The notes under the pieces: model-generated
The model's input: only the letters and a program-made list of their open reading frames with translations
Told to the model about the DNA's origin: nothing
Databases searched by the model: none
Sequence record: OZ035810.1
From: Gamaleyavirus AN24P2
Length of the DNA: 64,000 bases
Strand: one strand, 5' to 3'
Shown here: in pieces, positions 53,171 through 63,567 of the stretch
How the letters are laid out: every line of letters starts with the position of its first letter
Numbering within the stretch: the stretch's first letter is position 1
Program-made: the position numbers and the translations under genes

Positions 53171-53355
53171 AGTTATTACCTCCAAGCAAAAAATAAAGCC
53201 CCACTCCCGAAGGAATGAGGCTAGTTTATTAATACACTTGCACAGTCCAGCCATTGTAAGAATCTACAAAGACAATCCAGTCATCTTCTGCCCATAGTCT
53301 AGAACAAACTCCTGGGACTTTGAATCTGTATAAACCTTGTCTATAAGCTTCTTTT

Positions 53356-55704: not shown

Positions 55705-56181
55705 TTATTTACCGTGATTCGGATGATAGCCGAGAAGATACATAGCTCTTTCTCGTGCTTTACTGGCTTCTTCTATAGTATCGAAGTAGCCTAGGTGTTT
55801 TAGCTTACCGTCTATACTTATTCGTGCACTCCACTTCTGTAACTTTGCATACCACCCGACACCAGTAACACCGGATTTGTTTCTTTTATCTTTGGATTTA
55901 TTCTTCATGTTTCCTGCATGAGTGGTTAAATTAAGATTACTTAGTAGATTGTTGGCTCTGTTCCTGTCGTCATGGTCTATTACCATTCCAGGAGGAACTG
56001 GGCCATTATGCATCTCCCATATGATTACATGGACACGGTATTGCTTTGCTTTATACATGAAGGTGAGATAGCCGGTATGATGCATACTTCCTGCTTCATC
56101 CCCTATTTTTACTCGTACTGCTGGTTTAATCTTCCAGTATATTCTGCCATTGGCATACTCAAAGATTTCATGCCAATTCAT
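55705..56181 (-). mobile_element. free-standing HNH homing endonuclease with AP2 DNA-binding domain
   Basis: 158 aa; HNH motif MVIDHDDRNRANNLLSNLNLTTHAGNMKN; AP2-like segment SGVTGVGWYAKLQKWSARISIDGKLKHLGYFDTIEEASKARERA. Confidence 0.75.
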
Positions 56182-56234
56182 CGCATATTCTCCTAAATGT
56201 GATTAATAACCAAAAGCTGCGGAGCAGCTATTAC

Positions 56235-56510
56235 CTAACGTTTAGTCCAAAAGGTAATACGAATACTGTTCTCTTGACCAAGGTAGTCAATACGTACATA
56301 TAAACCATTACCGCTAAACTCGTTATTTTTCTTCTGGTAAGGCCATACCAGACTACGCATAGGTATTTTAATTAAACCAGATATATGACCTAGTTTAGTA
56401 CGACCCTTTAGTTCGTTTTGTAATGCACAATAGATATCATGCCGTGTAAGTGCCCTGGCTCTGACTTGAGCAGCCCATAGTTCTTCATATGTCATTTGGT
56501 AGTCTCCCAA
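56235..56510 (-). CDS. hypothetical early protein
   Basis: 91 aa ORF. Confidence 0.4.
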   Translation of the reverse strand: MGDYQMTYEELWAAQVRARALTRHDIYCALQNELKGRTKLGHISGLIKIPMRSLVWPYQKKNNEFSGNGLYVRIDYLGQENSIRITFWTKR

Positions 56511-56851
56511 TAGTTGAAGGCATCACCTAAGTGTTTACGCCATGCTTCAGGTAACAATACGTTGCCTGTAACATTAATGAACTGATATGGGTCTAGATAG
56601 TCATTACTCATGACTTTGAAATCCCATTGTGGATTGGCAGATGCATAGGCAATGAAGCCTTCAATGAAGCCATAGATAGCACCCTCTTTGATACGGTTAC
56701 CATTGCCATCTCTTACTGGGATAGCAAAGCTATTACCATAATGACCATAGGCCATACCCCAACGAGCACCGTGCTTCTTATAAGCTAACTTGGCAGCAGC
56801 ATTGGTATGCTGACCTAATGTGTTAGTAGTGAATACTAAGATTTCTTTCAT
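56492..56851 (-). CDS. hypothetical early protein (possible Rossmann-like nucleotide-binding fold)
   Basis: 119 aa; N-terminal ILVFTTNTLGQHTNAAAKLAYKKHGA pattern. Confidence 0.4.
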   Translation of the reverse strand: MKEILVFTTNTLGQHTNAAAKLAYKKHGARWGMAYGHYGNSFAIPVRDGNGNRIKEGAIYGFIEGFIAYASANPQWDFKVMSNDYLDPYQFINVTGNVLLPEAWRKHLGDAFNYWETTK

Positions 56852-57048
56852 TTACACGCCTCTCTATTGTAAGTATAAGCAGCTTGTGGAGTCATATTGT
56901 TATATGTACAAGTCATTTCTAAATAAGTAAGAGCATACTCATGATCACGTTGTTCCTTCTTGGTTCGACAATGACCACATTTACCATCCCATTGGGATAC
57001 ATGACCCTTACCACACTTGCATTGTTTATCCATTTGAATTCTCCACAA
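56848..57048 (-). CDS. Cys-rich zinc-binding small protein
   Basis: 66 aa; CKCGKGH...CGHC. Confidence 0.4.
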   Translation of the reverse strand: MWRIQMDKQCKCGKGHVSQWDGKCGHCRTKKEQRDHEYALTYLEMTCTYNNMTPQAAYTYNREACK

Positions 57049-57406
57049 AATAGTTATACATAGCCTTCACTAGCTTCTCTTTAATAACCTCACCATGACA
57101 TGGTTTTGGATAACAGAAGCATTGTAAGGCTAGTCCTTTTTCATCAATGGCTTTATTACCCAGACGATTCAGTTCATCCAGTACAACTGGATTACCTTTA
57201 TCAATCTGCTCCTGTAACCAGACCTTATACTTAGCAATTACTTGCTCTCTGGTTCCATGTTTACCAATGACGAATGGATTGCCTAATGGTGATCCACGTC
57301 CAATATACTCACCGGATTTACCGTGATGTTTATTAACAATAGTAATAGGACGTGCAGATACACCTAGCAAAGCATTGGTGTCATCACCTAATTGGATAGT
57401 CTTCAT
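57026..57406 (-). CDS. DUF4326-like protein
   Basis: 126 aa; YIGRGSPLGNPF and CFCYPKPCHG motifs as I recall them for DUF4326. Confidence 0.45.
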   Translation of the reverse strand: MKTIQLGDDTNALLGVSARPITIVNKHHGKSGEYIGRGSPLGNPFVIGKHGTREQVIAKYKVWLQEQIDKGNPVVLDELNRLGNKAIDEKGLALQCFCYPKPCHGEVIKEKLVKAMYNYFVENSNG

Positions 57407-57717
57407 GGTTTAAGTACCTGAAATGCGAACACAGGACGTTTACTACGCCACTGGTTCATAGCTAATTCACTAGTTTCAGAACCATCATGTAAGTCATAAA
57501 TAAATGAGATTACATAGTCTGGTTCTTCCGGGAAGTTCTCTGTAGAGAATGGTAAACCTGATTCCTTAAGGATAGGAACCAGAGGAGATTCAGCATTACA
57601 GTAGAGAGTAAACTCTTCATTGAATGCCTGGCTTGTTTGAGATACATAATCAATATTACGCATCATCTTATCTACATCAGTAAATGTAGAATCATGAACT
57701 ACTAGAATAGTTTTCAT
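57403..57717 (-). CDS. hypothetical early protein
   Basis: 104 aa ORF, 4-nt overlap with neighbour. Confidence 0.4.
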   Translation of the reverse strand: MKTILVVHDSTFTDVDKMMRNIDYVSQTSQAFNEEFTLYCNAESPLVPILKESGLPFSTENFPEEPDYVISFIYDLHDGSETSELAMNQWRSKRPVFAFQVLKP

Positions 57718-57968
57718 ACCTTTCTCAATGTCCCATAAATGTTATTATCGACAATACTCAAATCACAGAAACCAATCTCTTCTTGTCTCCCAGAGGATAC
57801 CCAGATATTGTTTTCTGTTAGCTTAGGTTTCTTAGAGAATCCTATTAATGAGGTATTAGCACTCTTATACTGTCGAGTATATAGAGCTATATACTTAACC
57901 CAGTGAGGTACTTGGATAGTATGTCCCATATATTCCACATTCTTGCCTGTAGGATATGTAATAATCAT
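57714..57968 (-). CDS. hypothetical early protein
   Basis: 84 aa ORF. Confidence 0.4.
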   Translation of the reverse strand: MIITYPTGKNVEYMGHTIQVPHWVKYIALYTRQYKSANTSLIGFSKKPKLTENNIWVSSGRQEEIGFCDLSIVDNNIYGTLRKV

Positions 57969-58325
57969 TTAGTACCTCACAACATATACAGGTTTATTAA
58001 GTTTATTCATGATATCAATCATGTGCTTGGTTCCTTTGGAATTGCCATCCCAGAAGCATACAGCAGCATCTGCAAATTCACCCATTTCCTGGTTACGTCT
58101 AAAACCAGCAGATTTTCCATATTTATCCCAGTTTGCTGGGAAATTATGAATAGGCATTTTGTTATTAGCCCATAGACTATATGCAAGCATATCTGCTCCA
58201 CGAGCCATACCACATACAAGTTCAGGTGAATCGGTTATTTCACCGGATTCTACTAACTTTTGTAATTCAGCAATCATACGATTGGTGTCAGTGAAATCAC
58301 GTCCACCAGCTATAATTAGTTTCAT
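57969..58325 (-). CDS. SLOG/DprA-like Rossmann-fold nucleotide-binding protein
   Basis: 118 aa; IIAGGRDF, CGMARGADMLAYSLWA and WDGNSKGT motifs. Confidence 0.5.
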   Translation of the reverse strand: MKLIIAGGRDFTDTNRMIAELQKLVESGEITDSPELVCGMARGADMLAYSLWANNKMPIHNFPANWDKYGKSAGFRRNQEMGEFADAAVCFWDGNSKGTKHMIDIMNKLNKPVYVVRY

Positions 58326-58543
58326 TTCTGATACCCCTGTATATAGTTAATACGGCGAATACGTTGAGTAGATGCCTTAACAGCCATCTGTTGATTTTCT
58401 TCTTTATACTGATTAGTCAGTATCTTATCCCATTCTTTCTGATTCCTTTGTTTCTGTAATATACGACTACACTTCTTATGATTAGCAATTCCCCTTCCTT
58501 TATTGCAAATTGGGCAAATACCATAATTAGTGCTGTACATCAT
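58322..58543 (-). CDS. zinc-ribbon small protein
   Basis: 73 aa; CPICNKGRGIANHKKC. Confidence 0.4.
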   Translation of the reverse strand: MMYSTNYGICPICNKGRGIANHKKCSRILQKQRNQKEWDKILTNQYKEENQQMAVKASTQRIRRINYIQGYQK

Positions 58544-58848
58544 TGGCTTAAAGCCTCCATTAATATTTTACGAATAACGTTAACATCAGATTCAGTACCA
58601 ATTAAACCAACAGGTTTACCTGTACTATCCGTTACAAATCCAGCAATTCTTTCCATTTCTGCTGTAATTAATTTGTCACCATTGATAAGACGATTACGAA
58701 GGTAAGCCTCATAAGCTACCTCTATATCTTCTACCGTGGTTCTTTCATTACGAGCAAATGGATTACTTAATGGGAAGGGTAAATGTACCCGTATATTCCT
58801 GTCAGCTACCTTAGCTTGGTGAGGAAGTATACATACTATTTCATTCAA
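58540..58848 (-). CDS. hypothetical early protein
   Basis: 102 aa ORF. Confidence 0.4.
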   Translation of the reverse strand: MNEIVCILPHQAKVADRNIRVHLPFPLSNPFARNERTTVEDIEVAYEAYLRNRLINGDKLITAEMERIAGFVTDSTGKPVGLIGTESDVNVIRKILMEALSQ

Positions 58849-58892
58849 GATTACTTCTCCTATTTAAATGCATATCTAACTACTCAAAAATA

Positions 58893-58924
58893 AAAAATAG
58901 GAGCCTCCTAATGGAGGACTCCTT
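58893..58924 (-). terminator. rho-independent terminator
   Basis: Bulged hairpin gagcctcc-taat-ggagg(a)ctc with long A-rich run on +. Confidence 0.5.
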
Positions 58925-58925
58925 A

Positions 58926-59144
58926 CTATTTGATACATGGATGATTGAAAGTTACGATACGAGCTTTACTTTGTTTAAGCCCTGCATCAATGAACTCTTG
59001 CAGTTGTTCATTAGTCATTACTGGTTTAAGGCGAGCACTTTGTTTAGCACGACGCTTAATAACATCTTCTTTGGTTCCCATGATTAGTGACTTACGCATG
59101 TTTAGTACTCCACATAAAGTTAAAAGGTTTATTGTTACGTACAA
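58926..59144 (-). CDS. hypothetical early protein
   Basis: 72 aa ORF. Confidence 0.4.
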   Translation of the reverse strand: MYVTINLLTLCGVLNMRKSLIMGTKEDVIKRRAKQSARLKPVMTNEQLQEFIDAGLKQSKARIVTFNHPCIK

Positions 59145-60157: not shown

Positions 60158-60188
60158 TATCGTCTAGTTAAAAATAAAAGACTCCCCG
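60158..60188 (-). terminator. rho-independent terminator
   Basis: gactccc-cgaa-gggagtc hairpin with A-rich run on +. Confidence 0.6.
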
Positions 60189-60207
60189 AAGGGAGTCCAG
60201 TTGTTGA

Positions 60208-60588
60208 TTAGAAAGTCAGTTTACGAGCATATTTATTCTCGTCTGCTGGGATGTCAGCAACCTCTGCTTTCACACGACGAAGTTGAACTTGCAGGTTAAT
60301 GATACCTTCTTCACCTGGTTCCAGGTTCTGAGCATACTCAATTAACTGTTCCAGCAAGTCATTCTGTGCACAACGCATAGCACGGAAGTCAGCATTGCTG
60401 CTATTAGTAGGCAGTGGCTCCTGAGTATCCAGTGGAATACCAGTAGGCAGAGAGATGAACTTCTCTTCTTCAGAGCCTTCATTAGCTACATAACCAATGT
60501 TCAACCAGAACTGAGCTTTTGGTTTATCAGTTTTAGCAGTGGTAGCAGCAGCGTTAGATTGACCGAAAGTGAATTTTTGAATAGACAT
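60208..60588 (-). CDS. hypothetical early protein
   Basis: ORF 60208..60687; hydrophobic extension dropped in favour of internal ATG ([10 protein letters not shown]...). Confidence 0.4.
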
Positions 60589-60722
60589 TTTGTACTCTCC
60601 AGATAAATGATTATTTGATTGATGGGTTTGTCTGTCGGTGACTAAACCCAAGAAAAGACTTAAGATTTCAATGATTAGTGGATGCATTTACATCATCCAT
60701 AAGACGCGGAGCGTCCTGGTTT

Positions 60723-61496: not shown

Positions 61497-61697
61497 GATG
61501 ATAGCTCCAATAGTTGATGATAGGACGACATGTCCATAACATGCGGAGCATGTGTAACGTGTAGGGTGGGGTAGGGTAGCGGCTACACCGTCAACATACC
61601 GGGGGGGCTAGTTGAGTGTAATGGTGTAGCCTCAGCCACACCACTGTAGCTGTACATAGCTATGACCAAAATGGTATGCAAAAATATGATAGCTATC

Positions 61698-62024
61698 CTA
61701 CTTATAAGCAGTTAAATAGGAGGAGGGAATCTGAGAGAGGATGTAGTCATAGTAATAGCAGTATGCTTCACTATTAGTAGAATTTATGGGCATACCTATA
61801 TAATCAAATACCCACAAACAGAAGTGGTTGAGCTCGTGAATAAGTGTATGTAAATGTTCACTAAAGATACCGATTAATACACGACTACCTGAGTAAGCAG
61901 TATACCCTCTACAACCTGCCAAGTCTGGTTCATGCCCTTTAAGTTTCTTGTACTTTTTGATGAAGGCATCCCGATCGAATACTACCTCTAACTGTACTGG
62001 GTAGGGGGATGTGTTTAGTTTCAT
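61698..62024 (-). CDS. small HExxH-motif protein (putative mini metallopeptidase)
   Basis: 108 aa; HTLIHELNHF contains HExxH. Confidence 0.4.
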   Translation of the reverse strand: MKLNTSPYPVQLEVVFDRDAFIKKYKKLKGHEPDLAGCRGYTAYSGSRVLIGIFSEHLHTLIHELNHFCLWVFDYIGMPINSTNSEAYCYYYDYILSQIPSSYLTAYK

Positions 62025-63367: not shown

Positions 63368-63567
63368 ATTTGCATACCTCCTGAAAAAGAAATGGGGTAG
63401 AGCCTCTCGACCCTACCCCTTACCGTTTTCTATCACGGGTCAGTTCATCACCCTAGATACATGTGTATCGTTAGCCTACTAGGTAGGAAAGGAGCCGGGT
63501 AACCCTGACTGTAGAAGTTATTAACTCTTTACGAGTACCGCCACTGTCTACTAGGCGGCATGACTAA

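Follow-up and report, generated by a model that had tools for sequence, protein, structure and literature searches.

The nine small genes that fill positions 56,235 to 58,848 of Gamaleyavirus AN24P2 (sequence record OZ035810.1; the window, below, is the whole analysed stretch of 64,000 nucleotides) form a single translationally coupled operon on the minus strand. Judged from homology and gene order, this operon is the Gamaleyavirus version of the gp9-gp14 block of phage N4, lying in the part of the genome that is injected first and that carries promoters of the virion RNA polymerase (vRNAP). Its products include SLOG and DUF4326 proteins and a predicted macro-like protein, and the operon may serve as a nucleotide- and ADP-ribose-centred counter-defence module, a reading to which we would give a little less than an even chance. 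An original prediction, made from the DNA letters alone, had proposed host-takeover or anti-defence genes here. That proposal has gained support of an indirect kind, namely the homology of one member to the phage gene ORF83 and the existence of proteins in which DUF4326 is fused to SLOG, NADAR or Macro domains.

The N4-like phages form a widespread virus family with uses in phage therapy, and to our knowledge the genes between their early promoters have almost no functional assignment. The block appears as a coherent module of SLOG, DUF4326 and macro-type proteins, one of which is homologous to a gene needed to escape the AVAST type III defence, and it would provide concrete knock-outs to make and substrates to try in N4, a tractable model. 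Its two pairs of an intact and a degenerate copy (F and A; C and E) offer a way to study phage enzymes turning into binders. New in the present work are these pairs, the recognition of ORF H as macro-like and degenerate and of ORF E as SLOG-like, and the link between a zinc ribbon and DUF4326. The earlier statement that the functions are unknown overstated the novelty: the main families are all catalogued, N4 has the equivalent block in its genes 9-14, and the likely role has been predicted computationally, so that this is not a new kind of system.

The operon and its counterpart in phage N4

The open reading frames (ORFs) are named A to I in transcription order, and all lie on the minus strand (lengths in amino acids, aa):

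58540..58848, minus strand: ORF A, degenerate DUF4326 paralog, 102 aa, TTG start with an AGGAG ribosome-binding site upstream
58322..58543, minus strand: ORF B, small Cys/His protein, putative zinc knuckle, 73 aa, phrog_6887 (5e-42)
57969..58325, minus strand: ORF C, YAcAr-type SLOG protein, 118 aa, PF10686, phrog_289 (3e-33)
57714..57968, minus strand: ORF D, phrog_1972 protein, 84 aa, phrog_1972 (1e-19)
57403..57717, minus strand: ORF E, divergent SLOG-like Rossmannoid according to its predicted structure, 104 aa
57026..57406, minus strand: ORF F, intact DUF4326 protein, 126 aa, PF14216
56848..57033, minus strand: ORF G, zinc-ribbon-like CxC...CxxC protein, 61 aa, ATG at 57033, phrog_13804 (6e-31)
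56492..56851, minus strand: ORF H, predicted degenerate macro-like protein of the A1S_2505 / N4 gp14 family, 119 aa, NF049995
56235..56495, minus strand: ORF I, phrog_14487 protein, 86 aa, ATG at 56495, phrog_14487 (7e-59)

The run of overlapping small ORFs that had been predicted is real. At seven of the eight junctions neighbouring genes share 4-8 nucleotides, mainly as overlaps of the ATGA type, where the start codon of one gene runs into the stop codon of the gene before it; at the remaining junction they abut. Against close relatives, the ratio of nonsynonymous to synonymous substitution rates (dN/dS) lies between 0.0 and 0.28 for every ORF. The junctions and the purifying selection together establish ORFs A-I as genuine genes of one operon rather than chance ORFs. 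The starts of ORFs G and I have been corrected to 57033 and 56495 from the sequence and from the PHROG alignments, which in both cases (phrog_13804 and phrog_14487, respectively) begin at residue 6 of the longer ORF.

Positions 56000-59000 are 84-92% identical to many G7C-type N4-like coliphages, and close relatives share the gene order A-B-(C)-D-E-F-(G)-H-I, ORF G being missing in 5 of 14 loci. ORF C is absent in 8 of the 14 close relatives (loci L001, L002 and L008-L019), ORF B then being followed directly by ORF D. Where it is present, its nucleotide identity falls to 72% with one relative and 88% with another, while the flanking ORFs D and E remain 92-96% identical to both. This presence/absence pattern and allele mosaicism mark ORF C as an exchangeable accessory gene, as opposed to the stable core of A, D, E, F and H, and both are typical of anti-defence genes. 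The part of the block around ORF C thus behaves as a diversity hotspot among near-identical Gamaleyaviruses. Some of these relatives also carry extra genes inserted between E and F, such as an 'endonuclease' in phage 24-32N.

In N4, genes 9-14 have the same order and orientation as the AN24P2 block, with identities of 73% (ORF A and gp9), 82% (ORF E and gp11), 94% (ORF F and gp12) and 46% (ORF H and gp14); gp13 is the equivalent of ORF G. ORFs B, C (the SLOG gene), D and I have no counterpart in N4, and a promoter 16-mer downstream of the block is identical in the two phages. We know of no assigned function for N4 genes 9-14 either. The operon is placed between predicted N4-type vRNAP promoters P2 and P3, so that the description of this DNA as an early region is right by position, and expression of the region would be expected to be early.

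SLOG, DUF4326, macro-like and zinc-binding members

The SLOG protein that had been proposed at 57969-58325 is borne out by a match of ORF C to PF10686 (YAcAr) at 44.8 bits, against a cut-off of 28.2 (E 1.1e-11). Alignment with 13 homologs, ORF83 included, reveals that it keeps the GGR after strand 1 as well as GxAxGAD, AGxxRN and WDGxSxGT. The labels 'GTP-binding domain' and 'DprA', found in public records, are unsupported, since the protein consists only of the 118-aa SLOG core. Its most informative relative is ORF83 of the Seuratvirus Dru_SM1, the deletion of which, in a knock-out library, lowers plating on AVAST type III (10.1101/2024.04.14.589459). The Dru_SM1 record (PP596835.1) was traced via a published primer sequence, and its ORF83 is 32% identical to ORF C (BLASTP, E 6e-10), both proteins belonging to phrog_289. 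By these matches, ORF C is homologous to a reported anti-AVAST type III gene. The two share the YAcAr-type SLOG motifs GGRDF, GxAxGxD and AGxxRN; they differ in that ORF83 comes from an unrelated siphovirus, has 130 aa with an insertion, and carries PGG..GT at the position of WDGNSKGT in ORF C. A later preprint models ORF83 with adenosine monophosphate (AMP), proposes a phosphoribohydrolase activity, and reports amoeba-virus homologs of ORF83 that carry a C-terminal DUF4326 domain (10.1101/2025.06.06.658234). The anti-Avs3 genes of Lidtsur and Forsur were also considered as N4-like early genes and rejected, as they come from Bonnellvirus (Autographiviridae) and are unrelated.

A gene of the ORF D family, phrog_1972, is found near the SLOG gene in both phages. 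In Dru_SM1 it occupies 1710-2012, two genes upstream of ORF83 (2533-2925) and within about 500 bp; it matches ORF D by BLASTP at E 6e-4, and its best PHROG match is a Gamaleyavirus gene. The presence of both genes in Dru_SM1, a siphovirus unrelated to N4, hints that ORFs D and C may move as a pair or act jointly.

The second family is represented by ORF F, whose predicted assignment to DUF4326 stands firmly (PF14216, 80 bits with the cut-off at 25). Its sequence retains GRGSPLGNPF, R53 and C96-x-C98-x-P100-xx-C103-H104, and all of the near-invariant residues of the family are present (G36, R37, L41, G42, N43, P44, R53, C96, C98, P100, C103 and H104), with a dN/dS of 0.06-0.13. The family has been predicted to comprise rhodanese-phosphatase-like enzymes that act on terminal phosphates (PMC9503650, PMC7824862). 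Representative relatives of ORF F number 5581 at 50% clustering; a homolog search apart from this listed only relatives of at least 87% identity, too close for modelling. Searches of solved structures gave no significant match by sequence for ORFs H, F and C taken singly, and none with profiles of the DUF4326 family or of the gp14 family to which ORF H belongs.

ORF A, which the original prediction had missed, represents a second, degenerate DUF4326 copy. It matches phrog_464 (1e-14) and ORF F (BLASTP, 3e-8), and an iterated hidden Markov model search seeded with it converges on the DUF4326 family; its Pfam DUF4326 score is only 15.8 bits, under the cut-off of 25. The GR and CxCxPxxCH motifs are lost, HLPFPLSNPF and LIGTESDVNV standing in their places, and its dN/dS is 0.06-0.16.

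Two Cys-rich small proteins had also been proposed, and both are present, as CxC...CxxC at 56848-57033 (ORF G) and CxxC...H..C at 58322-58543 (ORF B), with zinc binding remaining putative. ORF G is 61% identical to the N-terminus of one DUF4326 protein (P0230, E 9e-15) and also matches another (P0202, E 2e-11). These matches to N-terminal extensions of DUF4326 proteins mean that a zinc-ribbon-DUF4326 fusion exists elsewhere. ORF B has the metal-ligand pattern CPIC-x8-H-x2-C in its sequence and a dN/dS of 0.10-0.12. The possibility that ORFs G and B are paralogs was rejected, as they align in register yet not significantly (E 0.75). Beyond PHROG, no family can be assigned to ORFs B, D and I; dN/dS is 0.02-0.23 for ORF D and 0.06-0.10 for ORF I. 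Across ORFs A-I, Pfam gave no significant match other than YAcAr and DUF4326, and PADLOC gave none.

A second Rossmann-like protein had been suggested at 56492-56851, in ORF H; the model of ORF E, which had been overlooked, indicates that this protein is the real second Rossmannoid of the block and, with moderate confidence, a degenerate SLOG-like protein. The model (predicted local distance difference test score, pLDDT, 94) has a beta-alpha-beta Rossmannoid topology. In a viral structure library its orthologs from Klebsiella phage KP8 and Erwinia phage phiEaP8 rank first, and most of the matches below them are YAcAr/DUF2493 SLOG proteins; LOG enzymes and a deoxyribosyltransferase are also among its structural neighbours. 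Profile-profile comparison of ORFs C and E with hhalign places them in register over 60 columns, weakly (E 0.012, low probability), and neither BLASTP nor single-sequence hhalign gave a usable match between the two. ORF E lacks the SLOG signatures, with VHDSTF in place of GGRDF and the GxAxGxD and AGxxRN segments missing, and its family is confined to close relatives. The public label 'antirepressor' for ORF E is unsupported by any evidence here.

ORF H itself is predicted to have a macro-like rather than a Rossmann fold and belongs to the N4 gp14 / A1S_2505 family. It matches NCBIfam NF049995 ('A1S_2505 family phage non-structural protein') at 82.7 bits, against a cut-off of 45, along positions 1-78 of the 109 in the profile. 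Modelling from 41 homologs (pLDDT 91) gives the macro fold, the best structural match being the macrodomain of DarG, a DNA de-ADP-ribosylase, and some public records name homologs 'macrodomain protein' or 'N4 gp14-like'. The Pfam Macro model does not match ORF H at E up to 1, and the literature on A1S_2505 comprises only Acinetobacter papers on a small RNA and on zinc, which are not relevant. Macrodomains typically have 150-190 aa, and ORF H is shorter at 119.

The wider gp14 family has two glycine-rich motifs, VFGSNxxGxHGAGAA and RIGCGLAG, both retained in N4 gp14 (VFGSN..GxHGAGAA and RVGCGLAG). In ORF H the first loop reads VFTTNTLGQHTNAAA, with QHTNAAA for GxHGAGAA, and the second motif has gone through an 8-residue deletion; in spite of this loss its dN/dS is 0.07. 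By analogy, we infer that the glycine-rich loops of the family are the macrodomain loops that hold the diphosphate of ADP-ribose. If so, with both of them lost, canonical ADP-ribose binding by ORF H would be doubtful. The missing loops, like the absence of a Pfam Macro match, set ORF H apart from macrodomains of the DarG, TARG1 and Poa1p types.

The association of these families extends beyond the N4-like phages. Among the 150 DUF4326 representatives closest to ORF F, the 26 longest, scanned with Pfam, contain fusions to YAcAr SLOG (7), DprA-type SLOG (3), YpsA SLOG (1), NADAR (3) and Macro (1) domains, and further to DUF488-N3a (2) and a 3'-5' exonuclease (1). A survey of 68 distant viral loci with DUF4326 found gp14-family genes at 12 of them and C-type SLOG genes at 7; without exception these share the strand of DUF4326, and often they are its immediate neighbours. 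Related genes also lie close to the RNAPII genes in other subfamilies of the Schitoviridae, either SLOG by itself or SLOG combined with DUF4326, a macro-type gene or both. Klebsiella phage KpCHEMY26 carries DUF4326, SLOG and Poa1p-like macro genes near its RNAPII genes, and Pseudomonas phage 98PfluR60PP has a 'phosphatase' gene and a SLOG gene in a similar position. Such combinations fit the prediction of Iyer, Burroughs and Aravind that SLOG, Macro, NADAR and DUF4326 cooperate in the processing of ADP-ribose derivatives (PMC9503650, PMC7824862). The domain families of their network are those of the block, and the present survey re-found its fusions. AN24P2 differs from the network in several respects: its domains are separate adjacent genes instead of fusions; it has two DUF4326 and two SLOG-type copies, with one of each degenerate; and its macro-type member is one of the gp14 / A1S_2505 proteins, a family that goes unrecognised by the Pfam Macro model.

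Possible functions of the module

From the family memberships, folds, motif status, synteny, fusions and anti-AVAST homology observed, we infer a course of action whose substrates, chemistry, target defence systems and timing of expression are all conjectural. The SLOG protein ORF C would bind an adenine-ribose nucleotide or adduct arising from a host defence, or would cleave its N-glycosidic bond; the DUF4326 protein would strip phosphate from the product or process it otherwise; and the gp14-family macro-like protein would deal with the ADP-ribose moiety. The parts with intact motifs would then be ORF F, with its zinc-ribbon neighbour ORF G, and the accessory ORF C, while the degenerate ORFs A, E and H would most likely be non-catalytic binders or partners.

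Several points weigh against a counter-defence module of this kind. Three of its five nucleotide-type proteins (A, E and H) lack the signature residues of their families. The ORF83 result is a knock-out phenotype from a preprint. AVAST type III has been described (10.1101/2025.06.06.658234) as sensing phage proteins and having nuclease effectors, and is not known to rely on ADP-ribose signals; the link to ORF83 thus supports an anti-defence role and not specifically ADP-ribose chemistry. Much of the co-occurrence of DUF4326 with gp14-family genes falls within one virus family, many of the gp14 cases being N4-like contigs, so that shared ancestry could explain this pairing. Two terminator-like hairpins (60179-60198 and approximately 58895-58935) stand between the operon and P2, and early expression would therefore need read-through, as documented in the N4-like phage LUZ7 (PMC9163698). 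In T4-like phages, DUF4326 is nrdA.1, adjoining the ribonucleotide reductase genes, which hints at nucleotide metabolism.

The T4 context leads to an alternative in which the operon would serve nucleotide-pool metabolism: SLOG would act as a LOG-like enzyme or deoxyribosyltransferase on mononucleotides such as AMP and DUF4326 as a nucleotide phosphatase, redirecting host nucleotides to phage DNA synthesis without countering immunity. T4 NrdA.1 is of the same Pfam family as ORF F and lies beside nrdA/nrdB, a context that ORF F does not share; homologs are often annotated 'NrdA-like', and the name nrdA.1 is the likely source of this misleading annotation, which has spread to N4-like phages. As a label for DUF4326, 'NrdA-like ribonucleotide reductase' is unsupported. 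The AMP model and the proposed phosphoribohydrolase activity of ORF83 in the EVADES preprint would also suit pool metabolism, as would the LOG enzymes and deoxyribosyltransferase among the structural neighbours of ORF E. We nevertheless regard it as unlikely, given that the SLOG gene is dispensable within the genus, that the NADAR and Macro fusion partners point to ADP-ribose over bulk nucleotides, that the genes lie in the first-injected region away from those for replication and nucleotide metabolism, and that the phenotype of the ORF83 deletion is defence-specific. The same families could act instead on nucleic acids, removing or repairing adducts of ADP-ribose or of other kinds in phage DNA or RNA, the products of DarT-type toxins for example. 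With the zinc ribbons and the SLOG/DprA-like domains binding nucleic acid, adduct removal would fall to the macro-like protein and cleaning of the ends to DUF4326. Several findings speak for such a role: ORF H finds its best structural match in the macrodomain of DarG; zinc-ribbon-DUF4326 and DUF4326-exonuclease (3'-5') fusions exist, and DUF4326 matches a PHROG annotated as DNA repair protein; other phages have SLOG-helicase fusions (ICP1 HelB); and a 2021 prediction by Aravind ties DUF4326 to DNA modification and restriction-modification systems (PMC7824862). The step assigned to ORF H sits poorly with its loss of the two glycine-rich loops by which macrodomains hold the diphosphate of ADP-ribose, and we hold this explanation to be quite improbable.

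The block might also have no joint function, being a set of independent small accessory genes, some of them decaying, which remain syntenic through shared N4-like ancestry only. The variable presence of C and G, the absence of signature residues from A, E and H, the lack of an assignable family beyond PHROG for B, D and I, and the concentration of gp14-family/DUF4326 co-occurrence mostly within Schitoviridae would all be expected on such terms. Against them stand the fusion of the same domain families in single polypeptides of unrelated viruses, the adjacency of SLOG and DUF4326 in distantly related viral loci (where DUF4326 is 37-49% identical), the purifying selection on all nine genes, the degenerate ones included, and the overlapping start and stop codons of consecutive genes. 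An absence of joint function therefore seems distinctly unlikely. A further idea arises because ORFs A, E and H have lost signature residues yet are strongly conserved: they may be pseudo-enzyme decoys or sponges for ADP-ribose-derived or other nucleotide immune signals, or may inhibit host proteins through mimicry, working beside the intact enzymes C and F. We consider this very doubtful; if true, it would add new enzyme-derived families to the phage signal sponges. No ORF from A to I matches the sponge families covered by Pfam (Tad1, Tad2 and Acb2 being the known sponges), families outside Pfam not having been searched.

Transcription signals and neighbouring genes

The window reaches the end of the phage record, and its high-coordinate end corresponds to the left end in the N4 convention. 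The signals that flank the operon are as follows:

58895..58935, minus strand: intrinsic-terminator-like hairpin and T-run directly upstream of the operon, its core found in the terminator scan
56210..56229, plus strand (template strand): predicted N4 P3-type vRNAP promoter hairpin directly downstream of the operon, CCAAAAGCTGCGGAGC
56210-56229, 60697-60715 and 61534-61553, plus strand (= template): predicted N4-type vRNAP promoter hairpins with the pattern CCAWAANNNGCGGAGC

The upstream hairpin reads GGAGTCCTCC-ATTA-GGAGGCTCC, followed by TATTTTTTATTTTT. The pattern CCAWAANNNGCGGAGC has exactly three matches in the window, all on the template strand, where 0.09 would be expected by chance, and each has the heptamer GCGGAGC between inverted repeats, preceded by CCAWAA. 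In the first 10.5 kb of N4 it likewise gives exactly three sites, upstream of gp1, gp2 and gp15, which are P1, P2 and P3. The published P1-P3 have a GC-rich heptamer centred at -11, with -11G/A, -10G, -8G and +1C (PMC4496689); the P3-type site of AN24P2 carries -11G, -10G, -9C, -8G and +1C, in agreement with this requirement, and the 16-mer in front of N4 gp15 is the same as CCAAAAGCTGCGGAGC. The site is predicted to drive the HNH and RNAPII genes. Strong terminator-like hairpins with T-runs on the minus strand (53197-53222 and 63394-63419, besides those at 60179-60198 and 58895-58935) punctuate the left-end units, and terminator-like sites number 15 against 6.3 in shuffled sequence. Sites resembling sigma-70 promoters are rarer than shuffled sequence would give (14 against 34.5), and hence no host promoter is proposed for the operon.

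Beyond the downstream promoter, 55705-56181 (minus strand) codes for an HNH endonuclease (Pfam HNH_3 3e-17) that also has a DNA-binding domain of the AP2 type (AP2 8.5e-5) and looks like a mobile homing endonuclease. The gene is placed between P3 and the RNAP1 gene, where N4 and phage 24-32N have none; in Mimir124 an HNH gene is found between RNAP1 and RNAP2 instead. On the other side of the operon, 60208-60687 (minus strand) holds a homolog at the position of N4 gp2, of a family that recurs in N4-like contigs. As called by program, this ORF begins 11 nucleotides past the +1 predicted for P2 and opens with an unusual hydrophobic leader, and its true start may be an internal ATG. Further out, 61698-62024 (minus strand) is an ORF of 108 aa with no Pfam match at E up to 0.1; its HExxH-like motif, IHELNH, suggests a small metallopeptidase-like protein.

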